DNA from: an uncultured Thiotrichaceae bacterium
Lineage (GTDB): Bacteria > Pseudomonadota > Gammaproteobacteria > SZUA-229
Direction: 5' to 3'
Length of the DNA stretch: 64,000 nt
Assembly (NCBI GenBank): GCA_964600755.1
Contig: CAZRKQ010000050.1
Span: forward strand, 4,926 to 68,925
Shown: piece by piece, positions 2,438 through 61,019 of the stretch
Position numbering within the stretch: position 1 is the first letter of the stretch
Layout of the letters: the number at the start of each line of letters is the position of its first letter
Position numbers and translations under genes: made by a program
Notes under the pieces: generated by a model
Seen by the model: the letters and a program-made list of their open reading frames with translations, nothing else
The model's database searches: none
Told to the model about the DNA's origin: nothing

Positions 2438-4180
2438 TTATGCCCAGTTCGTCTGTTTCGCCTTGTGCAGTTTCCTGTAGCCTTCAAGTAACTTGTTATG
2501 CAGCTCAAAACCTTCCAGGCTCAATCCCGGACTGTGCAGGCCATGAAATACTTCCCTGCCCTCGGCTATTTCAATACCGTTAATGACACTGTCTTCGCCA
2601 TACATCAGTACCAGGCTATTACTGTAATCTTCGAATTTACGATTTTCGTCGTGCTTTATGTCCAGTAGCGCATTGATACAGCGATATTGGTTTGATCGCT
2701 TCTCGCCAAGCTGATCGATTTGCACACACCAGTCGACCCAATCGATGGCCTGTTCATCCTGCATGGCCAGACACAGCATTGCTTTAAGCTCACCTATTCT
2801 CAGGGTCGCCCAGGCGGTACCAGGGTCTGGTGCTATGCCTATAAACTCGGCAACGCGTTGAAAATCATTGTAGCCTGCTGCTTCGAGCCGGTTGAAGATA
2901 TCGCGCCAGCGTTCACTATCAAGCTCTTTCACAGACAGAACATCTTTTCTGAATAAAGCACCTTCATTGTTGTTATTCCAGACCAGGTCATCGACGGGGT
3001 AAATATCTGACATACCCGGTACGATGATGCGGCACGAATACACATCCAGGTGCTGGTAGTCTGAGATATAAATATCGAAACCCATGTCATGAATGACACC
3101 GCATAAATACTCAAATTCATCATGCGTGTTGGCATCATGTTCCCAGTCGGCAAATTCATAGTCCGCTGAGTGTTTGAAAAAGTCGTATGAAATCAGTCCG
3201 CTGGAGTCGATAAAATGCGATTCCAGGTTATGGTGGTCTGCTACCTCTTCGAGGTCGAAGCTTGGTTGCTGAAAGCCATCCAGCTGGTCCAGGCCCCTGC
3301 CCTGCAGCAGCTCGGTGACGGTGCGCTCAAGCGCAACTTCAAAACACGGGTGGGCACCGAATGATGCGAACACGGAGCCATTATTTGGGTTAATCAGCGT
3401 AACGCTCATAACCGGGAATTTGCCTCCTAAAGAAGCATCGGCAATACGCAGATGGTAACCATGCTGCTGTAATTCACTGATTGAAGCAGCGATACCTGGA
3501 AACCGGTTGATGACCTCGAGCGGCACTTCTGGCAGACAGATTCCATCTGCGATGATTCTGTTCTTTACATAGCGCTCAAAAACCTCGGACAATGCCTGCA
3601 CGCGGGCCTCGTTGGCAGTATTACCGGCGGACATACCGTTGCTGACGTAGATGTTGCCAATAACATTCACCGGGAACCAGGTTGTGTGTCCGTCTTTTTG
3701 CCGCTGGTAAGGCACCGCACATATACCACGCTGACCTGTGCCCGAGTTGGTATCGAATATTTGACCAGGTTTCAGCTGCCTGTCAGGGTCATAGTAGTTC
3801 CACAGGCCGTCATCAAGCAGACCGGCAGGCATCGTCTCAGCATCAGTCTGGAACCAGCGTTCGTCCGGGTAATGTACGAAGTCATCATTGGAAAATTCTT
3901 CACCGAGGTAGAAATCTGCGAAAAAATAATTGCAGCTCAGGCGTTCAAAATATTCACCCAGTGCACTGGCAAGACAGGCCTTGTGGCTGGCGCCCTTGCC
4001 ATTTGTAAACATCAGGCCACACTCCTTGTCCCTGATATGAACCGAGTAGACATTCGGCACAGGATTCAACCATGAAGCTTCTTCAATCTCGATACCAAGC
4101 GCTTTCAGTTTGTTCAACATGCTCTCGATGGATGATTCGAGATCACGGTCCTTGCCCTTTATGAATGTGATTTCAGACAT
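2438..4180 (-). CDS. ycaO: YcaO-domain protein (ribosomal protein S12 methylthiotransferase accessory factor-type)
   Basis: 580 aa. Collinear with E. coli YcaO (IEEASWLNPVPNV.SVHIRDKEC...GKGA...ALASALGEYFERLS.NYFFADF ... ACRIIVPGMSDIYP...). Confidence 0.9.
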   Translation of the reverse strand: MSEITFIKGKDRDLESSIESMLNKLKALGIEIEEASWLNPVPNVYSVHIRDKECGLMFTNGKGASHKACLASALGEYFERLSCNYFFADFYLGEEFSNDDFVHYPDERWFQTDAETMPAGLLDDGLWNYYDPDRQLKPGQIFDTNSGTGQRGICAVPYQRQKDGHTTWFPVNVIGNIYVSNGMSAGNTANEARVQALSEVFERYVKNRIIADGICLPEVPLEVINRFPGIAASISELQQHGYHLRIADASLGGKFPVMSVTLINPNNGSVFASFGAHPCFEVALERTVTELLQGRGLDQLDGFQQPSFDLEEVADHHNLESHFIDSSGLISYDFFKHSADYEFADWEHDANTHDEFEYLCGVIHDMGFDIYISDYQHLDVYSCRIIVPGMSDIYPVDDLVWNNNNEGALFRKDVLSVKELDSERWRDIFNRLEAAGYNDFQRVAEFIGIAPDPGTAWATLRIGELKAMLCLAMQDEQAIDWVDWCVQIDQLGEKRSNQYRCINALLDIKHDENRKFEDYSNSLVLMYGEDSVINGIEIAEGREVFHGLHSPGLSLEGFELHNKLLEGYRKLHKAKQTNWA

Positions 4181-4342: not shown

Positions 4343-5248
4343 ATGCCAAACAAAAATATAATATTTATACCCGGCAAGAACCCGAAACCACCCCCGAAAC
4401 AACACCGTGAAATGTTGTGGCGCTCCCTGGCGGAAGGTGTGAGGCGTGCACAGCCGGATATCGCTGCAGATATCGACAAGCGTATGAAGCAGTTCAGGCT
4501 GATCGCCTGGAATCAGCTTTATTACGAGGCTGAAAAAGACAGTAATCGCGACCTGCCCTGGATCGATGAGCTGATAAATACACATGGCCCAACTCAACAC
4601 GATATCAAGGATGCGCATTCATGGCATCGAAAACTGGACCGCACGCTGTATGCTATGGCCGACCATTTTCCCTATATCATCCGTTTTCTTTCCGGCCCCG
4701 CCTGTGCAACAGTTAACGAGCTCAGTCGTTATTTTAAAAACAGCCACAATATCGCCTATCACATTCGTGAACAATTCAAGAAAGTAATCCGTCCCATGCT
4801 CGACAATAACGAGCATGTGCTTGTTATTGGCCATAGCATGGGTTCTATTATTGCTTACGACGCACTGTGGGAGCTGTCTCACATCGAACATCGAAAAGAC
4901 AAGCTTGATTTTCTCTCTATTGGCAGTCCTTTAGGAATGAACTTTGTTCAGCACAGACTGGTTGGAAATAACGAGCAAGGTACACGCAAGTACCCGACCA
5001 TAATCAGGCGCTGGATAAATGTGGCCTCGGTCGGTGATATTACCGCGCTCGACCGGCATTTCCGCGATGATTTCCAGCCCATGCTGGACCTTGACATCAT
5101 TGAATCGATCGAAGACCATACTGAAGGTATATACAACTTCTTCCATAATGAAGATGGCCTGAATTGTCATCGCTCATATGGCTACCTGGTGAATCCGGCG
5201 ACAGGCAAAATCATCGCAGACTGGCTGTATAACTCAGGCGCTGATTAG
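4343..5248 (+). CDS. alpha/beta-hydrolase-fold protein (lipase/esterase-like, GHSMGS nucleophile elbow)
   Basis: 301-aa ORF with a GxSxG motif (VIGHSMGSIIAYDA) and downstream Asp/His candidates. No closer family assignment is possible from sequence alone. Confidence 0.5.
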   Translation: MPNKNIIFIPGKNPKPPPKQHREMLWRSLAEGVRRAQPDIAADIDKRMKQFRLIAWNQLYYEAEKDSNRDLPWIDELINTHGPTQHDIKDAHSWHRKLDRTLYAMADHFPYIIRFLSGPACATVNELSRYFKNSHNIAYHIREQFKKVIRPMLDNNEHVLVIGHSMGSIIAYDALWELSHIEHRKDKLDFLSIGSPLGMNFVQHRLVGNNEQGTRKYPTIIRRWINVASVGDITALDRHFRDDFQPMLDLDIIESIEDHTEGIYNFFHNEDGLNCHRSYGYLVNPATGKIIADWLYNSGAD

Positions 5249-32981: not shown

Positions 32982-33566
32982 CTAGTCGTCCTCTTTATTG
33001 TATTTCAATGCTGCCCACACTGTTCTGACATCCACATGTTCATGATGAATCAGCAGCGTAATTGCTATTTCTTCTAAAGCAGCCACTGCTGAAAATACGG
33101 CAGCTACCCTGAAAGGCCAGTCGAGCCATCCTGCAAAAAGTAATATATAACCAACAAAGGTCACCACAACAGCCACTTTAACAGTCCAGGTGTGATAACT
33201 GGTGATGGTGTTGAACTTGATGAGCCCTACGATGACAGGTGATGTAAAACTGATTACAATCACAACAAATGAGAGTAGTTCTTCAACAACAATCTCGGGC
33301 CAGAGTATCCATGCGCAAACAGCCATGGTGGTATAGATGGTGAAATCACCCCAGCTATCGAGGCGTGATCCCAATGCTGTTATCTGATTCAGCATGCGTG
33401 CAAGGAAACCATCCAGCACATCTGTAAAACCTGAAAACATCAGGCCAGCAAGAAACCAGACAGGTTTCTGGGTAAATGCAAAATAGAATAAAACCGGCGC
33501 CATCAGAATGCGTATAAAACTGACAAAATTCGGCAGGTTATAGATTTCTCGATTGGCTAAGTTCAT
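32982..33566 (-). CDS. CDP-alcohol phosphatidyltransferase family protein
   Basis: 194 aa, membrane protein. D-G-x2-A-R...G...D...D-type motif (DVLDGFLARML...GSRLDSWGD). Confidence 0.8.
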   Translation of the reverse strand: MNLANREIYNLPNFVSFIRILMAPVLFYFAFTQKPVWFLAGLMFSGFTDVLDGFLARMLNQITALGSRLDSWGDFTIYTTMAVCAWILWPEIVVEELLSFVVIVISFTSPVIVGLIKFNTITSYHTWTVKVAVVVTFVGYILLFAGWLDWPFRVAAVFSAVAALEEIAITLLIHHEHVDVRTVWAALKYNKEDD

Positions 33567-33605
33567 AATACTAAATTAAGATCTTGAATTATTTACCAAT
33601 AATAA

Positions 33606-34091
33606 CTAATAAGGCTTTTTACGTATACCCAGTTTATAGAAGATGTAGGACAGCAATAGCTCTGAAATAACAAACGCACATACGAGAATGATTATTGACT
33701 CCATATTGAGTTCAAATACATCCCTTAACATGATGGCCGGAAATAGCGACTCCGGAACCTGGTCAAGTAATGGCGCCATACTGCTTGGCGCCATTCCCAG
33801 GCGGCGCTTGATAAAACTGGAGAAAATATCTCCTGCAACCACATATAAAGCGACCAGTATGCCTGTTACTGCTGGGTAGCCAAGTAAAACAGCACCAACA
33901 GAGGTGAATATAAGGGCACCTGCAATGCCACGCCAGGTTTTTGATTTACCGAATAACGGATTGTCGTCAGCCAGCCGGCGACAAAAATCAACAGGCAAAT
34001 TCAGCCTGTTTTTCATCAGCGCGCGCAATACGACTGGTGCTCCATTTGCAATTATAATAAGCAACAGAAGATGTAATAAATTTATAGACAT
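33606..34091 (-). CDS. CarS-like (CDP-archaeol synthase / DUF46 family) integral-membrane cytidylyltransferase
   Basis: 161 aa with 4-5 TM segments. GKSKTWRG and the rest of the layout resemble the CarS/CdsA-related CTP-transferase family. It sits immediately upstream of the CDP-alcohol phosphatidyltransferase gene on the same strand. Confidence 0.5.
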   Translation of the reverse strand: MSINLLHLLLLIIIANGAPVVLRALMKNRLNLPVDFCRRLADDNPLFGKSKTWRGIAGALIFTSVGAVLLGYPAVTGILVALYVVAGDIFSSFIKRRLGMAPSSMAPLLDQVPESLFPAIMLRDVFELNMESIIILVCAFVISELLLSYIFYKLGIRKKPY

Positions 34092-34163
34092 GGCATATAC
34101 AGTTTATAATTACCTGTATCTAGTTTCTTGTAATATTTTACAGATAATGATTCACAACAAACA

Positions 34164-34916
34164 ATGGAAAGCAACACCCTCAAAGTTTTAACGTACAACA
34201 TACATAAAGGATTCAGTTCTACTAATCGGCATTTTGTACTCCATGGCATAAAAGAGTCCATACGCGAAGTTGATGCTGACCTGGTTCTATTACAGGAAAT
34301 TCACGGCGAACGGGATATCTCCAAAAACAGGTTTGATGACTGGCCCAGTAATAATCAATTCGAATTTCTTGCTGATGAAGTCTGGCACCACCACGCCTAT
34401 GCCAAGAATGCAATCTATAAGTCAGGTCATCATGGCAACGCAATACTCAGTAAATATCCACTCATCGAATGGGAAAATATTGATGTGTCACTTATGCCGT
34501 CACACAGCCGCAGTCTTCTGCATGGCACGATTGAAATAACACAAACACGGCAACATATACACATTATCTGTGTACACCTTGGTCTGTTTGGCATAGAGCG
34601 AAAACGGCAACTTGCCTCGCTTGTCAGCAGAATAGACTCTCATGTGCCTCATGATGCCCCCCTGATCATCGCAGGCGATTTTAATGACTGGTTAGGCAGG
34701 GCTGAAAAGTATTTTACCCACGACCTGGAAGTTCACGAGGTATTTAAAATGTCTACTGGCAGGTATGCCCGGTCGTTTCCAGCCTGGCAGCCGATGTTGT
34801 CGATGGACCGGATTTATAGCCGCGGTCTCGGCCTGGTCAATTGCGAGCGCATGCATGGCGATCCATGGAGAAAGATGTCTGACCATGTTCCTTTAATGGC
34901 CGAGTTTCAATTATAA
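34164..34916 (+). CDS. Endonuclease/exonuclease/phosphatase (EEP) family protein
   Basis: 250 aa. LKVLTYNIHKG...LVLLQEI...GDFND...SDHVPL. All EEP catalytic motifs are present. Confidence 0.85.
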   Translation: MESNTLKVLTYNIHKGFSSTNRHFVLHGIKESIREVDADLVLLQEIHGERDISKNRFDDWPSNNQFEFLADEVWHHHAYAKNAIYKSGHHGNAILSKYPLIEWENIDVSLMPSHSRSLLHGTIEITQTRQHIHIICVHLGLFGIERKRQLASLVSRIDSHVPHDAPLIIAGDFNDWLGRAEKYFTHDLEVHEVFKMSTGRYARSFPAWQPMLSMDRIYSRGLGLVNCERMHGDPWRKMSDHVPLMAEFQL

Positions 34917-35061: not shown

Positions 35062-35448
35062 ATGATATCTGTTCAAAAATTTATAGCTATTCTCACGTCA
35101 GTCGCACTTATGAGCCTGTCTTTCACCAGTACTCAGGCTGCCCTGGTAAGCAACGACCTGGTTATAAATCATGTGCAACATAATAGCGCTAAAACGGAAT
35201 TAATACAGACAATAAACCGTGATGATATTAAACAACAACTGTTAAACATGGGCGTCAATCCAGAGGATATTACAAGCCGCATCGATTTGATGACGCATGA
35301 AGAGATAGCGCAACTGAATCAGCAAATTGACGAACTACCGGCTGGTGGTGATGTGTTAGGTGTTATTCTTATAATATTTATTGTATTTGTTATTACGGAT
35401 GTTATTGGCGCAACAGATATATTCCCGTTTATCAAGCCTGTGAACTGA
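35062..35448 (+). CDS. PA2779-family small protein (signal peptide + C-terminal TM)
   Basis: 128 aa. Signal peptide, helical middle region, C-terminal hydrophobic segment (VLGVILIIFIVFVITDVIGA). Immediately followed by a PA2778-type peptidase gene. Confidence 0.5.
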   Translation: MISVQKFIAILTSVALMSLSFTSTQAALVSNDLVINHVQHNSAKTELIQTINRDDIKQQLLNMGVNPEDITSRIDLMTHEEIAQLNQQIDELPAGGDVLGVILIIFIVFVITDVIGATDIFPFIKPVN

Positions 35449-35461
35449 TACCTGATAATGA

Positions 35462-36448
35462 ATGGCCATTAACATAACATGGCTAAGGCTTACTGCCTGT
35501 CTGCTACTCGCCTGCCTGCTTTATATGCAGGGCTGCTCGACCGTGCATAAAAGCAGGCAGACTCTTCCTGATGATGTTCCACCCGCAGTCGAACTGCCAC
35601 ACACGCCGTTTTATCCACAAAGCAAGCATCAATGCGGTCCGGCTGCGCTTGCAACCGTGCTACAGTCTCAACAGGTAGATGTAACACCGGAAACTCTGTC
35701 ATCACAGCTGTATATACCTGGACGCAAAGGCAGCTTGCAAATCGAGATGGCAGTAACGGCCAGACGTTATGGTATGCTGCCTTATCCACTTGCACCACGG
35801 CTCTCAGACTTATTGGTCGAGATCGCTGCCGGCAATCCTGTGCTTGTGCTGCAAAATCTCGGCTTCGAACGGTGGCCTCAATGGCACTATGCTGTTGTTG
35901 TCGGCTATGACATAGCAAACAACGAGCTAATACTGCGCTCCGGCACAACGAAACGCTGGGTAACATCTTTTGAAGCGTTTAACAACACGTGGAACCGGGC
36001 AGATAACTGGGCCCTGGTAATCATGCCAGCGGGTGAGATACCGGTGACAGCCAGTATCTCTACATATCTAAAAACAGCTTATGCATTTGAAGAAACCGGT
36101 TTAACTCGACATGCACTTGATGCTTACCGCGCTGCAACAAGTGTATGGCCCGAGCATAGCTCAGCGTGGCTGGCACTTGGTAACATGTTATATATAGCCG
36201 GCAACAGTGATGAAGCTGTATCTGCACTTTTCAAGGCTTCAAGGCTGAGTCCCGCTACGGTAAGCGTATGGAATAATCTTGCGTATGCACTGTATAAGAA
36301 TGGTTGCGCGCAGCAATCATTTAGCTCTTTACAATGCGCCTACCATCTATCACCCGATGATGACAATATTCGCGATTCCGAACAGGAAATAAAGAATATG
36401 GCTATGCAGCCCCAGACGGGAAACTGTCCAGAAATTGCTTGTAATTAA
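35462..36448 (+). CDS. PA2778-family C39-like cysteine peptidase lipoprotein with C-terminal TPR repeats
   Basis: 328 aa. Lipobox LLYMQGC. Cys motif QCGPAALATVL of C39/papain-like peptidases, with a downstream His (WHYAVVVGYD). C-terminal TPR-like repeats (AWLALGNMLYIAGNSDEAVSALFKA...). Confidence 0.65.
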   Translation: MAINITWLRLTACLLLACLLYMQGCSTVHKSRQTLPDDVPPAVELPHTPFYPQSKHQCGPAALATVLQSQQVDVTPETLSSQLYIPGRKGSLQIEMAVTARRYGMLPYPLAPRLSDLLVEIAAGNPVLVLQNLGFERWPQWHYAVVVGYDIANNELILRSGTTKRWVTSFEAFNNTWNRADNWALVIMPAGEIPVTASISTYLKTAYAFEETGLTRHALDAYRAATSVWPEHSSAWLALGNMLYIAGNSDEAVSALFKASRLSPATVSVWNNLAYALYKNGCAQQSFSSLQCAYHLSPDDDNIRDSEQEIKNMAMQPQTGNCPEIACN

Positions 36449-37004: not shown

Positions 37005-37793
37005 TCAATCCGGTTTTTTATTTTCGCTGAGAAATCCGCTTAGTCCACGCCTGGAGTCCTGTGATAACCACTCACGCAAATACTCTACTTCCTCGGTATT
37101 TGCTATTCCTTCAAGTGATTTATCGCCTGACCTGACCGCTCGATAGGCCTGTTCCAGAGTTCGGTAGCGATCACCTTTAATACCTGACCTGCGTAAGCCG
37201 ACTGCATTCAAGCGGTAATGATGTGCCTTTTCGCCGGCGACCATGGTAAATGGCATAACATCTTTTCTTACCGCTACGAAGCCGGCAATCATGGCATTTC
37301 GGCCTATTCGGCAAAACTGATGAACTGCAACACTGCCGCCAAACACAGCATTATTGCCGATCTCCACATGACCGCCGATTGCGGTATTAATTGTAAGAAT
37401 TACCCCATCACCAACATTGCAGTCGTGACCGATATGTGTGTTAACCATGAGGAAACCATTCGAGCCCAGTCGGGTAGCTTTAAGAGTCGATGTTGAACGA
37501 TGGATAGTAACGTTTTCACGCAGAGTATTGGCATCACCGATTTCAACCCAGGTTTCGGTGGATCGATCAAAAGAAACATCCTGCGGCAGGTCACCAATAA
37601 CTGCGTGAGCATGTACGCGGTTTTCAGCACCCATACGTACATAATCATAAATCACAACATGGGGCCCAATTACAGTATTTGAACCAATCTCGACGTGATC
37701 ATGAATAATCGAAAAGGGCCCCACTGTAACACCTTCGGCGAGCACTGCATTCGGGGAGACAATGGCAGTAGGATGTATACTTGGTTCAGGCAT
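37005..37793 (-). CDS. Second LpxA paralog (acyl-ACP--UDP-N-acetylglucosamine O-acyltransferase-like, left-handed beta-helix)
   Basis: ORF 37005..37976. The first 61 codons have no similarity, so the probable start is MPEPSIHPTAIV (37793). Hexapeptide repeats plus the LpxA catalytic region (NTHIGHDCNVGD...VHQFCRIG) and the LpxA-specific C-terminal helical domain. Distinct from the canonical lpxA at 48058-48828. Confidence 0.75.
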   Translation of the reverse strand: MPEPSIHPTAIVSPNAVLAEGVTVGPFSIIHDHVEIGSNTVIGPHVVIYDYVRMGAENRVHAHAVIGDLPQDVSFDRSTETWVEIGDANTLRENVTIHRSTSTLKATRLGSNGFLMVNTHIGHDCNVGDGVILTINTAIGGHVEIGNNAVFGGSVAVHQFCRIGRNAMIAGFVAVRKDVMPFTMVAGEKAHHYRLNAVGLRRSGIKGDRYRTLEQAYRAVRSGDKSLEGIANTEEVEYLREWLSQDSRRGLSGFLSENKKPD

Positions 37794-37953
37794 AGTGTTT
37801 ATCAGGTTATTGGCAATATGTACGATATTAGCGGACAAATTCCACATCTTTTGAGTGTGAAAAAACCACCTGAAAATGAAGGAATTATTGGGCACTAATC
37901 TTGTCATATTTTTGGTAGAATCCCTACTAGTTTCAGACACACACGAGGTTGAT

Positions 37954-38331
37954 ATGTCAGATATACAGTTCAACAATCAGTTAACCGATCAAATCAATGT
38001 ATCGCCGGAAGCAGCAAAGCAATTACTGGCTTTGACTGAAAATGAAGAAGGCGTTAATGGTGTTCGCATATTCGTTTCAGGTGGCGGTTGCGGTGGTATG
38101 AGCTATGGCATGACTTTCGTAGATCAGCCAAATGAATATGACTGCACACTGGATAAAGATGGCCTGAAGGTATATGTCGATGCTGTTGCGCTAAGTTATC
38201 TTGCCGGTGTCGAAGTCGATTACCAGACACAGGGCGCCAACGCCAGCTTCGTATTCAAGAATGTATTTGCCAATACTGGCGGATCAGGAACCTGCGGCGC
38301 TTGCGGGGCAGCAGGCGGCGGTTGCGGCTAG
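37954..38331 (+). CDS. HesB/IscA-family (A-type carrier-like) protein with Gly/Cys-rich C-terminal tail
   Basis: ORF 37876..38331; start at MSDIQF. IFVSGGGCGGMSYGMTFVD matches the IscA core. The usual C-terminal CGCGESF is replaced by GTCGACGAAGGGCG. Confidence 0.6.
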   Translation: MSDIQFNNQLTDQINVSPEAAKQLLALTENEEGVNGVRIFVSGGGCGGMSYGMTFVDQPNEYDCTLDKDGLKVYVDAVALSYLAGVEVDYQTQGANASFVFKNVFANTGGSGTCGACGAAGGGCG

Positions 38332-39885: not shown

Positions 39886-41187
39886 GAGTCAAGGACATAG
39901 GTAACAAAAGAGTCCAAGGACATGGGTTACACTTTCACCGTGATATAGGGCACGGTCTTACCCTTAATACTTCTTTCATCAAATCGTCCGAGTGTGACCG
40001 GTCCAAAATATACCTGCCAGATCCCCGCATCGACTTCTTCCAGTCCAACATGTTCACCTTTCAACAGGTGTGACACATAGACCAGCTTGTTATGCCAGTA
40101 CACCACGCCATTGCTGCTGACTTTGCGCACCTCAAAATAATTCGGATAGTGCAGCTCGGGTAGATGTTCCGGGTAAGGTCGGGGTGACGGTGCGTAGTGT
40201 GAGGCGGGCGTCTGCTGCTCAAGCGCCTCATGCGGACGCTGTTCATTGTACTCTGCACGAAAGGCATCGAAGCGTTGTTGCTGGGCTTTCATGTTCGCCG
40301 ACGGTGGCCGGGTCGCCGCTTGCTTAAGCGTGCGGTGCATGCGCTCATGCCGTCCATTCTGTTGCGGCTTGCCCGGCTCAATGCGCTCGGGCAGGATCCC
40401 CAGCCTGATCCACCACAGTGACAGTTGCGACAGGCCACCGCGGGCCGTGCTGGCAAAGGGTACGCCGTTGTCAGAACGGATGCGCTCAGGCAAGCCGTAT
40501 TGTCGGAACAGTCGGGTGAAGGTGGCCCGGGTGTCTTTCAGCCGCGGCCCTTTGAGGGCGTCGCAACCACACAGGTAGCGACTTTGATGGTCCATGACCG
40601 TGAGTGGATAACACCACTGGCCGTTACCCAGTTTGAACTGCCCTTTGTAGTCGACACTCCACACCCCATTGACCTGCTTCACCGGGGCAAACGGTTGTGG
40701 ATACGGCGTCACCCGGCGCCGGCGCCGGCGCGGGTGCACCAGGCCCGCACGGGACAGAATGTTGTAAATCGTGCTCTTTGAGGGAATGGCTTCATCGGGA
40801 TAACGCTGTGCCAGCAGCACCTGCAGCTTCTTGGCACCGGGCTGTGTCTGAAACTGCTGGCGCAGTTCGATGATGGCTTGCTGAATGCGGTAAGGGGTTC
40901 GCGTTGGACACGCGGTGGGTGTACGGCGTTGTTCATTCAGCCCGTCCAGCCCTTGTTGCTGAAAACGGTGTATCCACTTGTAACCCGTTTTTCGGCTGAC
41001 GCCATAGTGTGCACACAGCTCGGTCACGCTCGCTACCTGGCGCAGGTAGTCGGCAATAAACAGGACTTTTTGTTGCATCGGCTTCACCTCTTTCCAGGGC
41101 ATAGGCACCTCCTCTTGTCGGTGCCAACAGATTACTCAATCTGTTACCTATGTCCTTGGACTAATGTGTTACCTATGTTTATAAACC
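39886..41187 (-). mobile_element. IS481-family insertion sequence (about 1.3 kb) with duplicated terminal inverted repeats, GC-rich relative to its surroundings
   Basis: Terminal IRs: GTCAAGGACATAGGTAACA / GTCCAAGGACATGGGTTACA at 39888-39931, and TGTTACCTATGTCCTTGGAC / TGTTACCTATGTTT at 41143-41182. A single DDE transposase ORF lies inside. The coding DNA is visibly more GC-rich than flanking genes. Confidence 0.8.
39927..41108 (-). CDS. IS481-family DDE transposase (N-terminal HTH + integrase catalytic core)
   Basis: 393 aa. HTH (ELCAHYGVSRKTGYKWIHRF), DDE integrase core (WSVDYKG...VMDHQSRY..., SDNGVPF, ...QNGRHER), and a poly-Arg PRRRRRR linker. Confidence 0.85.
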   Translation of the reverse strand: MPMPWKEVKPMQQKVLFIADYLRQVASVTELCAHYGVSRKTGYKWIHRFQQQGLDGLNEQRRTPTACPTRTPYRIQQAIIELRQQFQTQPGAKKLQVLLAQRYPDEAIPSKSTIYNILSRAGLVHPRRRRRRVTPYPQPFAPVKQVNGVWSVDYKGQFKLGNGQWCYPLTVMDHQSRYLCGCDALKGPRLKDTRATFTRLFRQYGLPERIRSDNGVPFASTARGGLSQLSLWWIRLGILPERIEPGKPQQNGRHERMHRTLKQAATRPPSANMKAQQQRFDAFRAEYNEQRPHEALEQQTPASHYAPSPRPYPEHLPELHYPNYFEVRKVSSNGVVYWHNKLVYVSHLLKGEHVGLEEVDAGIWQVYFGPVTLGRFDERSIKGKTVPYITVKV

Positions 41188-48057: not shown

Positions 48058-48828
48058 TCATCGTGTCCAGCCGCGTTCGCTTGTACCCAGAAAATCGATT
48101 ACCTGCTTGACTTCAGGGTGAACGGCCGCAATTTCAGATACACGTTCGAGTTTTTCCTTTAGTGTACCTTTCGACTTGACCAGGATTTTATAGGTCTCCT
48201 GCAGGGCACGGATGGTTTCTGGCTTGAATCCTTTGCGCACCAGGCCTTCCTTGTTAATGCCGCGTGCCTTTGCCCTGTTGCCTGCCACTGTGAAATAAGG
48301 CAGCACGTCCCGGTCCAGAGCCGTTGCAAAACCGGTAAAGCAGTATGAGCCCAGACGTGTGAACTGGTGCACCGCAGTAAAGCCACCAAGAATTGCATAG
48401 TCTTCAACGACTACATGCCCAGCCAGAGTCGCGTTATTGGCAAGAATAATATTGTTGCCGATTATGCAGTCGTGAGCGACATGGACATAAGCCATAAACA
48501 GGTTGTCGTTACCAATTTGCGTAACGCTTCGATCTTCTTCTGTACCACGATGTATGGTGGTACATTCGCGAATGGTATTTCTATCGCCTATAACAAGCCT
48601 TGATTTTTCGCCATGAAACTTCAGATCCTGCGGATCTTCACCGATTGATGCAAACTGGAAAATACGGTTTTCCTCTCCAATTATTGTTGGCCCTTTAATA
48701 ACAACATGCGGGCCGATTACTGTACCGGCCCCGATCTCTACATCTGCACCAACAATACTATATGGCCCTATCTGAACATCACGTGCAATCACAGCAGACT
48801 CATCAATGATTGCGGTTTCGTGTATCAT
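48058..48828 (-). CDS. lpxA: Acyl-ACP--UDP-N-acetylglucosamine O-acyltransferase
   Basis: 256 aa. Canonical position after fabZ. HVAHDCIIG catalytic region. Confidence 0.95.
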   Translation of the reverse strand: MIHETAIIDESAVIARDVQIGPYSIVGADVEIGAGTVIGPHVVIKGPTIIGEENRIFQFASIGEDPQDLKFHGEKSRLVIGDRNTIRECTTIHRGTEEDRSVTQIGNDNLFMAYVHVAHDCIIGNNIILANNATLAGHVVVEDYAILGGFTAVHQFTRLGSYCFTGFATALDRDVLPYFTVAGNRAKARGINKEGLVRKGFKPETIRALQETYKILVKSKGTLKEKLERVSEIAAVHPEVKQVIDFLGTSERGWTR

Positions 48829-54553: not shown

Positions 54554-55747
54554 TTAAACAGTCTGTAGATTATTCATATGTGACCGTGCGATTTCACGTG
54601 CCGACTGGTCCACAGCCAGGATCTCATCGAGTGTGCTCGCATTTGTTATTGTTATTTTTTCTAAAACGCTTTGTATTAACCCTGCAATTGCTGTAAATGC
54701 GATCTTCTTCTGCAGGAACGCCTCAACAGCAATTTCATTCGCTGCATTCAGTGCAATACTTGCCGAGCCTCCTGCCTGTATTGCCTGGTAGCATAATTTA
54801 AGGCATGGAAATCGTTGCAAATCGGGTTTTTCAAACTCCAGTTTTGCGACATCAAAAATATCAAGAGGTTCAACACCTGAATCTATTCGTTCAGGCCAGG
54901 CCAGGCAATGTGCAATCGGTGTACGCATATCAGGATTACCCAGTTGAGCCAGAATTGAGCCATCAGCATATGAAACCATCGAATGAATGATACTTTGAGG
55001 ATGAATAACGACTTCGATGAGGTCGTGCGAAACATTGAAAAGCCAATGCGCCTCGATTACCTCTAACCCCTTGTTCATCATCGTAGCTGAATCAACTGAA
55101 ATTTTCCGTCCCATGACCCAATTCGGATGGCTAACGGCCTGTTCTGGCGTAATCTCATGAAATTGTTCGAGCGCTGTGGTTCTGAAGGGACCACCACTGG
55201 CAGTCAGCAATATCCTGTTAATGCCTGACTGTTGCGGGTTATCAGGCAGTTGATGCGGCATACACTGGAAAATAGCATTATGCTCACTGTCGACAGGCAG
55301 CAATAGCGCACCGTTATTATGCACGGCATCCATAAACAGACGCCCTGACATCACCAGTGCTTCCTTATTAGCGAGCAATACCCGCTTGCCTGACTCTGCA
55401 GCAGATAATGTTGGCTGCAAACCGGCTGCACCGACAATACCGGCGACCACGGTATCAACCTGCTCCAGGCTGGAAACCTGCTTCAGGCCTTCAATACCTG
55501 CAAGCACCTGCGTGTCCTGCCCCCTGGCTTTCAGTCTATCGAAAAGCTGTTGTGCACAGGTCTGGTCGCTCATCACGGCAAATTCCGGCCGCCATTGCAG
55601 ACACTGCTGCTCGAGCGCATCAACATCAGTATTTGCGGTTAAAGCGACAATTCTGTACTTGTCCTGGTGGCGTGAAACCACATCCAGCGTGTTTTGCCCG
55701 ATGCTTCCGGTAGAGCCCAGAATTGTTATTGCCCTGGATGCATTCAT
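54554..55747 (-). CDS. dxr: 1-deoxy-D-xylulose 5-phosphate reductoisomerase
   Basis: 397 aa. [10 protein letters not shown]-terminal NADPH motif and Dxr-specific central region. Confidence 0.95.
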
Positions 55748-56565
55748 ATACTGAGCACCGGCTGCAGCAATAACTCATACCCGACCAGGAATACAGGCAT
55801 GGCAGCCAGCACACTGTCAATTCTGTCGAGAATTCCACCATGGCCAGGAAGTATCGCCCCGCTGTCCTTGACGCCATGTTCGCGCTTCAACACACTCTCG
55901 TATAGATCTCCGACAACCGAGACCAGTGTAAGCACGACAGCCAGCAGTAGAAAGTAAATGGTGCTCCTGGTATCGAGACCGAAATAATACGCGGCTAGCG
56001 CCGTATATACGACCACAGCGGCAATAGCGCCGTATAAACCTTCACGCGTTTTTCCAGGACTGATTGCAGGTGCAAGTTTGTGTCGGCCAAAACGCTTGCC
56101 ACTGAAATAGGCACCGATATCAGCCACCCATACGAGCATCAGGCCATAAAGCAGCCATTCGGGGCCATTATGCTCTACATGGATGGCGTTCATGGCTAAC
56201 ACTGCAGCAGGAATGACCAGTATGCCGGCAAGCAGTTTAAGCGGTGATACCTTGCTGCTGACTTTTTCTGGCTGCGCCTTAAACAGGTAAAAGCTGATGA
56301 AAAGCCACCAGATTACACCCGCATAAATATAAAACTGCATATATTGGCCGGCATAGTTAATCACGATCCAGGGAATTGCACACATCAGCAACAGATAGAT
56401 GATTTGACCGACAGTGTTCAATCCGGCCAGTTTCGCCCATTCGTAGGCAGCTACTGCTGTAACAACCATCGTCAGCCAGAAAAAAACATGGCTTGGCTGG
56501 AAAAGGATAATCCAGATAATGCCTACGGCGAGAGGAATGGCTGTGAGTACACGTTGAAGCAACAT
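55744..56565 (-). CDS. cdsA: Phosphatidate cytidylyltransferase
   Basis: 273 aa. C-terminal SxxKRxxxxKDxGxxxPGHGGxxDRxDS motif ([25 protein letters not shown]). Confidence 0.95.
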
Positions 56566-60744: not shown

Positions 60745-61019
60745 ATGTCTCTCCTAAAGGGGTTAGGCCTCCATACACCCCATGCAATAACCGTTTTTAT
60801 GTCGGCACCCAATTGCATGTGTCGGTGTATGTGCGAATTAAAATCCGATATAGTCGTCATTTTGGCGCCAATGCAGGTGCCTGATCAGACGTTTATCGAG
60901 TGAATTGCGTTAAACGCGGCGGCTTTATACCATATCGGGCGCCTGGAAACAACGGGAATATACATCGCCCAATATCGAGATATATGATGTAACTTATTTA
61001 TTTATAAGGATTTATTACT

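Follow-up and report, generated by a model that had tools for sequence, protein, structure and literature searches.

The locus described here lies in a 64,000-nucleotide stretch of DNA (the window) from an uncultured Thiotrichaceae bacterium, positions 4,926 to 68,925 of contig CAZRKQ010000050.1 (assembly GCA_964600755.1). It consists of three genes. Two are arranged as an operon and encode small membrane proteins, a CarS-like CTP-transferase and a CDP-alcohol phosphatidyltransferase (CAPT); the third is divergent from them and encodes a Mg-dependent phosphoesterase of the EEP (endonuclease/exonuclease/phosphatase) superfamily belonging to the family of Escherichia coli YbhP (Table 1). The original prediction, made from the DNA letters of the window, had proposed that the three products form a module for phospholipid head groups in which a CDP-activated alcohol or lipid is made, transferred and dephosphorylated. 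Its family assignments were borne out for all three proteins, each scoring above the gathering threshold of the corresponding profile: 60.2 bits against PF01864 for the CarS-like protein (gathering score 22, residues 32-161), 77.2 bits against PF01066 for the CAPT and 74.1 bits against PF03372 for the EEP protein.

Table 1. Coordinates of the three-gene locus and of the other features of the window mentioned in the text.
Feature	Position	Strand	Description
CAPT gene	32982-33566	(-)	194 aa; second gene of the two-gene operon; PF01066
CarS-like/CAPT intercistronic spacer	33567-33605	(-)	39 nt
CarS-like CTP-transferase gene	33606-34091	(-)	161 aa; first gene of the two-gene operon; PF01864
CarS-like/EEP divergent intergenic region	34092-34163		72 nt; presumed home of both promoters
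Copy of the spacer element	34141-34163		putative leader or operator plus ribosome-binding site
EEP phosphoesterase gene, YbhP family	34164-34916	(+)	250 aa; divergent; PF03372
PA2779/PA2778 gene pair	35062-36448	(+)	directly 3' of the EEP gene
Second LpxA-like acyltransferase gene	37005-37976	(-)	Hexapep and Acetyltransf_11 domains
IS481-type transposase gene	39927-41108	(-)	rve integrase core, HTH and LZ_Tnp_IS481 domains
Canonical lpxA	48058-48828		in the lpxD-fabZ-lpxA cluster
Canonical cdsA	55744-56565	(-)	between uppS and dxr; PF01148, 205.7 bits
t44 RNA	60762-60853	(-)	rpsB/tsf region; RF00127, 79.3 bits
Stand-alone YcaO gene	2438-4180	(-)	580 aa; YcaO and YcaO_C domains

All three open reading frames are intact. 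CarS-like and EEP proteins identical to those of the window recur, with the gene order unchanged, on independent ENA and JGI metagenome contigs; the trio is therefore no artefact of assembly. Among named relatives, the closest is a Thiotrichales metagenome-assembled genome (MAG; L001), with which synteny extends across the whole neighbourhood. Co-transcription of the two membrane genes had been considered probable, and the organization of the locus agrees with this: only 39 nt separate them, no terminator-like site was predicted in this spacer, and the gap at orthologous loci is typically 10-30 nt (42 loci). The divergent spacer between the CarS-like and EEP genes is typically 60-95 nt long (28 loci). 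In many loci from different genera (L004, L016, L030, L032 and others) it carries, immediately 5' of the EEP ATG, the element ACAGAATRATTCA followed by GGAA. Four close relatives have the exact motif, with one copy in each locus; the copy in the window has two mismatches, and matches of this quality are no commoner in the window than expected by chance. The element may represent a leader or operator together with a ribosome-binding site. A search of the divergent spacer for a Pho-box or another regulator site yielded only this short conserved element beside the start of the EEP gene.

The CarS-like protein is hydrophobic throughout, as judged from its hydropathy. A profile built from 25 homologs matched the structure of CarS from Aeropyrum pernix (ApCarS, 5GUF) over its full length with E=1e-14. 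The family and 5GUF share the motifs GxxKTxxG, GDxxxSFxKRRLG and APLLDQ, the residues of which are invariant in the 25 homologs; the active site was mapped by alignment to 5GUF only. The AlphaFold (AF2) model of the protein consists of five helices (predicted local distance difference test, pLDDT, 87.8), and its only significant fold match in the PDB was 5GUF (TM-score 0.69/0.71, root-mean-square deviation 2.8 A, 31% identity), TmCdsA (4Q2G) being a weak match at rank 7 with E=0.89. There was no match to PF01148, the family of CdsA with its nine-helix architecture. The 161-aa protein thus belongs to a cytidylyltransferase family, as had been suggested, through PF01864 rather than PF01148, and the model indicates that its fold is a genuine CarS fold. 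It reached 76.4 bits against the NCBIfam CarS equivalog NF003114, under the cutoff of 148, which points to a distinct bacterial subfamily and not to an ortholog of archaeal CarS.

These properties also bear on what is activated. The original prediction had drawn an analogy with the IPCT/DIPPS-type pathways, and this analogy did not stand: the sole cytidylyltransferase of the module is a five-helix membrane protein with the ApCarS fold, and no NTP-transferase domain adjoins the module. As the enzyme would be a membrane protein of the CarS fold and not a soluble nucleotidyltransferase, a lipid, and not a soluble alcohol, is the most likely species to be activated with CDP.

A public gene call (L084:5443-5865) shortens the CarS-like gene to 140 aa and thereby removes 21 residues that make up the conserved first transmembrane helix. 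Since this N-terminal helix is conserved and aligned to ApCarS, the 161-aa start is the correct one. Homologs are labelled CDP-2,3-bis-(O-geranylgeranyl)-sn-glycerol synthase in several sources, which for the proteobacterial proteins is probably an over-annotation. Relatives of the CarS-like protein were found in at least 578 of 185,579 species genomes, with a patchy distribution over the Gamma-, Beta- and Alphaproteobacteria; the scan used one genome per species, and 578 is a lower bound. An exhaustive search of representative sequences gave about 145 clusters (50% identity) of the family at E<=1e-30, all of about 160 aa, and no domain fusion that would reveal a partner was found among them.

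The second protein of the operon carries a complete CAPT catalytic motif (D49-x2-D52-G53-x2-A56-R57-x8-G66-x3-D70-x3-D74) that is invariant in 29 orthologs, and the alignment of these orthologs revealed a subfamily signature made of K117 and Y124-H125-T126-W127. It scored under the cutoff of every curated NCBIfam equivalog and fits no curated family. The best curated model for all 29 orthologs was the CAP-type cardiolipin synthase ClsA (NF053678), with PgsA and AIP synthase next; the score of the window protein, about 50 bits for a cutoff of 240, covers only model positions 2-107 of 180 and places it outside ClsA. Nor is it a PgsA according to the equivalog models, with 32.6 bits compared to a cutoff of 109.1 for TIGR00560 and 19.2 bits compared to 304 for PRK10832, and its identity with E. 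coli PgsA (38%) extends over 71 residues only. Against solved structures, the CAPT profile gave distant matches only, PgsA 7DRJ (31 bits) followed by PIP synthase and PssA; all of these solved relatives are enzymes that depend on CDP-diacylglycerol (CDP-DAG). Because the similarity to solved or curated CAPTs is at the level of the motif only, the acceptor specificity is not readable from it.

The conservation of the trio was analyzed in the 80 best genomic loci from named species. The position of the CAPT gene could be assessed in 78 of them, and in 43 it lies directly downstream of the CarS-like gene on the same strand, an adjacency far above chance. Pseudomaricurvus hydrocarbonicus JCM 30134 is one carrier of the CarS-CAPT pair. 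EEP adjacency was assessed in the 38 CAPT loci with at least 900 nt upstream; an EEP gene adjoins the CarS-CAPT pair in 30, across different taxonomic orders and mostly in divergent orientation. The proposed co-conservation of the genes in other genomes is therefore upheld. The genes flanking the trio differ from locus to locus. The TIGR04219 outer-membrane protein, the PA2779/PA2778 pair and the RND pump encoded in the window are common to only two or three of the closest relatives, and it is this restriction of the other neighbours that identifies the trio as the conserved unit. In Methylomarinum (L068), the genes have been rearranged into a tight co-directional operon, thyA-CarS-EEP-CAPT, which provides an independent tie between the EEP protein and the two membrane proteins.

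In a neighbour-joining tree, the type of partner follows the phylogeny of the CarS-like proteins. One clade is associated with a CAPT, with or without an EEP. A second clade is without a CAPT; its members come from Methylococcales (among them Methylococcus capsulatus), Competibacteraceae, alphaproteobacterial MAGs and the Solemya velum symbiont. In 21-22 loci of this second clade, the CarS-like gene is arranged tail-to-tail, often with a 4-nt overlap, with a gene for a 320-aa calcineurin-type metallophosphoesterase that is most like YaeI and the UDP-2,3-diacylglucosamine pyrophosphatase LpxG (for example L047:8001-9454, L053, L055, L065 and L058:1671-3127); the M. capsulatus locus itself showed no such partner. 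A CarS-like protein together with a phosphoesterase may thus be the deeper conserved pair.

The EEP protein of the window is 41% identical to E. coli YbhP over 246/250 residues (E=3e-72). Its catalytic residues N12, E45, D172, N174, D215, D240 and H241 are invariant in 28 homologs. The protein is soluble and has no signal peptide, and a maximal 19-residue hydropathy of 0.62 excludes a transmembrane segment. The AF2 model (pLDDT 74.8) was compared with the PDB using Foldseek; only generic EEP folds were recovered, with TM-scores of about 0.7 and 16-20% identity, and no match to any characterised EEP was found at the sequence level. The literature searched still describes YbhP as a protein of unknown function.

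The genomic setting of ybhP itself is informative. In E. coli, it heads the operon ybhP-clsB-ybhN, with a 4-nt overlap between it and clsB, the gene for cardiolipin synthase B (L081:4499-6498). A YbhP-type EEP gene followed, with a 4-nt overlap, by a gene for a PLD-type synthase was also found in Nitrosomonas (L025:3086-5019), N. eutropha (L088:5001-6988) and a Burkholderiales MAG (L090:5001-6916), and the synthase of the Nitrosomonas L025 locus passes the ClsB equivalog cutoff (375 bits compared to 281). In Nitrosospira briensis and Pelomicrobium (L087, L089), there is no cls gene adjoining the YbhP-type EEP gene. The EEP family therefore partners with phosphatidyltransferases of two unrelated superfamilies. 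This recurrence beside both PLD-type and CAPT-type phosphatidyl-transferring enzymes is the strongest available clue that the EEP protein acts on phospholipid head groups and that the module is concerned with lipids of the phosphatidylglycerol (PG)/cardiolipin class. The window and the E. coli operon have in common an EEP gene beside a gene for a phosphatidyl-transferring phospholipid synthase. They differ in that the window partner is a CAPT with its own CTP-transferase instead of a PLD-type enzyme, that the window has no homolog of ClsB or of the PplT/YbhN membrane protein, and that its EEP gene is divergent instead of first in an operon. By these comparisons, the trio links an uncharacterised E. 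coli protein to lipid metabolism.

Combined, these results are best accounted for by an accessory phospholipid module working beside the housekeeping CdsA pathway, in which a CDP-lipid would be made, its phosphatidyl group transferred and a YbhP-type phosphoesterase step carried out; we estimate the probability of this reading at roughly 0.55. Its accessory status is supported by the canonical cdsA in the window, the presence of which had been noted in the original prediction as a sign of an additional pathway, by the CAPT scores far under the PgsA cutoffs and by the patchy distribution of the CarS-like family. In the proposed pathway, the CarS-like enzyme would use CTP to turn a membrane lipid phosphate into a CDP-lipid, as suggested by its fold and motifs; the substrate is most likely phosphatidic acid, which would yield a dedicated CDP-DAG pool. 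The CAPT, with its intact motif and its linkage in the operon, would then move the phosphatidyl group from the CDP-lipid to a hydroxyl acceptor, with release of CMP. Finally, the cytoplasmic EEP protein, placed in the pathway by gene linkage, might hydrolyse a phosphoester in the head group, either that of the product or that of a precursor. The product would most likely be an anionic lipid of the PG/cardiolipin class. Precedents for dedicated CDP-DAG synthases are E. coli YnbB and mitochondrial Tam41 (PMC7018664).

Two sub-variants of this pathway were considered, neither of which is rated above a tentative possibility. In sub-variant (a), the CAPT would make a lipid-phosphate such as phosphatidylglycerol phosphate (PGP), and the EEP protein would take off the phosphate. 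This gives every gene a role, and a phosphatase supplying PG would explain why YbhP-type genes precede clsB. In sub-variant (b), the CAPT would be a CAP-type cardiolipin synthase acting on CDP-DAG and PG, with the EEP protein taking part in the turnover of the resulting lipid. This version fits the best, if weak, model match of the CAPT and the way in which CAPT and ClsB seem to replace each other beside the EEP; it also fits the bioinformatic prediction of CAP-type Cls in diverse proteobacteria (PMC3378450). The CAP-type cardiolipin pathway (actinobacterial and eukaryote-type Cls; Tam41, Pgs1, PGP phosphatase and Crd1) resembles the proposed module in that a dedicated CDP-DAG synthase feeds CAPT enzymes and a phosphatase step is included. 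It differs in that the window CTP-transferase is unrelated to Tam41, the phosphoesterase is unrelated to Gep4/PTPMT1 and the ClsA score of the CAPT is the low one given above.

Several observations weigh against the proposed module. The fold matches of the EEP protein (TDP2, nocturnin, orphan EEPs and the neutral sphingomyelinase 8J2F) are equally distant and do not discriminate between a lipid phosphodiesterase, a lipid phosphatase and a nuclease. The likeness of the CAPT to ClsA is weak, confined to the motif-bearing N-terminal half and modestly above that to PgsA and AIP synthase. About a fifth of the CarS-CAPT loci have no adjacent EEP gene, and the existence of a sister clade without CAPT indicates that a CarS-like protein can do without a dedicated one. 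Simultaneous loss of pgpA, pgpB and pgpC is lethal in E. coli, so that YbhP does not suffice as a PGP phosphatase in this species; this weakens sub-variant (a). The need for a second CDP-lipid synthase in a cell that has CdsA is unexplained. Lastly, there were no biochemical data for bacterial members of the three subfamilies in the literature searched, and no functional characterisation was found in that on YbhP, on DUF46/PF01864 or on bacterial CarS.

The loci lacking an EEP gene could mean that this protein is functionally unrelated to the membrane pair, for instance a nuclease or a nucleotide phosphatase whose adjacency is a matter of local synteny only. The predominance of nucleic-acid enzymes such as TDP2 among its fold matches would fit such a view, as would the YbhP-type EEP genes of N. 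briensis and Pelomicrobium, which have no lipid gene alongside. However, the adjacency holds in 30 of the 38 assessable loci, across different taxonomic orders and with unrelated flanks, it survives the rearrangement seen in Methylomarinum, and an overlap between a homologous gene and clsB is found independently in E. coli, Nitrosomonas and Burkholderiales; we regard a fortuitous association as unlikely. A role of the trio in lipid salvage or remodelling is also rather unlikely. The EEP protein would here be phospholipase-C-like and free diacylglycerol or another lipid alcohol, the CarS-like protein would be a CTP-dependent lipid kinase comparable to yeast Dgk1 or dolichol kinase, and the CAPT would draw on the general CDP-DAG pool to rebuild a different head group. 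The CTP-dependent kinases Dgk1, Sec59 and VTE5 do belong to the same CTP-transferase superfamily, the EEP superfamily includes lipid phosphodiesterases of the sphingomyelinase-C type, 8J2F is among the fold matches, and the pairing of the sister clade with a different phosphoesterase makes a CarS-like protein plus a phosphoesterase a recurring core. Yet the known CTP-dependent kinases are larger and closer to CdsA, whereas the CarS-like protein has the size, the five-helix architecture, the motifs and, at 31% identity, the sequence likeness of a genuine CarS; its tight operon coupling with the CAPT is most simply explained by the supply of a CDP-lipid donor, and the sphingomyelinase match is no better than those to nucleases or nocturnin.

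Other products of the CDP-lipid were weighed in the same way. The E. coli operon ynbABCD, which encodes a CAPT (YnbA), a CdsA paralog (YnbB), a hydrolase (YnbC) and a phosphatase (YnbD), resembles the trio in combining an extra CTP-transferase, a CAPT and a phosphoesterase beyond the housekeeping cdsA, and YnbB has been reported as a paralog of CdsA that is reserved for the synthesis of MPIase (PMC7018664). By analogy, the trio could be a functional counterpart of ynbABCD and lead from CDP-DAG to a product that is not a phospholipid, such as a glycolipid anchor, with YnbB/CdsA feeding MPIase synthesis as the model. The resemblance to ynbABCD, also put forward in the original prediction, turned out to hold at the superfamily level only, and orthology was rejected: the match to YnbA is a 26-residue stretch containing the catalytic motif, the match to YnbB has E=0.001, and no homolog of YnbC or YnbD is present in the window. 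The CTP-transferase of the window is a five-helix PF01864 protein, in contrast to YnbB, a member of PF01148, and its phosphoesterase is an EEP and not of the YnbD type; as a full-length YbhP homolog, this EEP has its closer analogue in ybhP-clsB. In addition, YnbA resembles PIP/AIP synthases (75 bits) and the window CAPT does not (40 bits), and no glycosyltransferase was found among the conserved neighbours of the 80 loci. A glycolipid product is quite improbable on these grounds. Less probable still is the synthesis of an archaeal-type lipid, in which the CarS-like protein would convert an isoprenoid ether lipid to CDP-archaeol, to which the CAPT would add the head group. Archaeal CarS (CDP-archaeol synthase) is the closest characterised relative as well as the only significant fold match, it shares size, fold and motifs with the window protein, a CAPT step comes next in the archaeal pathway too (PMC9385802), and the annotations of homologs cited above point the same way. 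Against this, the protein falls short of the CarS equivalog cutoff (76 bits compared to 148), genes for GGGPS, DGGGPS and G1P dehydrogenase were not found among the window genes scanned (a subset of the open reading frames) or among the conserved neighbours of the 80 loci, and the host genomes belong to ordinary Gamma-, Beta- and Alphaproteobacteria, in which the bacterial cdsA/lpx context is complete. The substrate in these bacteria is presumably an acyl lipid phosphate, and no pairing with an EEP has been described in archaea. The accessory phospholipid module thus remains the preferred reading.

The window is otherwise an ordinary gammaproteobacterial chromosome, with ispD/ispF, eno, kdsA, pyrG, an RND pump and a two-component system. 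A scan with Rfam for riboswitches or leaders found nothing at the trio locus, and the t44 RNA was the sole match in the window. Next to the EEP gene, the PA2779/PA2778 pair encodes a small protein of the PA2779 family (DUF6627) followed by a C39-like cysteine peptidase of the PA2778 family with TPR repeats; the pair is conserved, but only in the closest relatives. The second LpxA-like acyltransferase gene, extra to the canonical lpxA, is syntenic in the two closest relatives. Its open reading frame starts from TTG with a long N-terminal extension; this may be an over-call, since a public gene call is 280 aa long. The IS481-type transposase gene lies in a local rise in GC content (0.50-0.54) and is flanked by a gene for an ATP-grasp ligase; this is a single 388-aa open reading frame in the window, whereas the gene calls of the near-identical ENA contig L084 split it in two. 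The stand-alone YcaO gene lies amid housekeeping genes.

A scheme in which CDP activation is followed by phosphatidyl transfer and a phosphoesterase step is well known; the particular enzymes, namely a bacterial CTP-transferase of the CarS fold, an unclassified CAPT subfamily and a YbhP-type EEP, are not. Bacterial PF01864 proteins, the CAPT subfamily and the YbhP-type EEPs, of which there are thousands of sequences, had no experimentally assigned function in the literature searched, and the comparative data provide a testable hypothesis that unites these three orphan families in one lipid pathway tied to the ybhP-clsB operon of E. coli. A wider and more doubtful proposition is that bacterial CarS-like proteins set up a CdsA-independent CDP-lipid pool, that a new class of CAPT uses this pool for a phospholipid not previously described in Proteobacteria (such as a cardiolipin of the CAP type or a lipid with a novel head group), and that YbhP-family EEPs are a new class of head-group phosphoesterases. 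If the proposed module exists, it would constitute an accessory route to phospholipid head groups in nitrifiers, sulfur oxidisers and methanotrophs. It would also put an end to the mis-annotation of the CarS-like proteins as CDP-2,3-bis-(O-geranylgeranyl)-sn-glycerol synthases, which can be misread as a sign of archaeal lipids in bacteria, and it would give a function to the conserved E. coli orphan YbhP and clarify the physiological role of ybhP-clsB.

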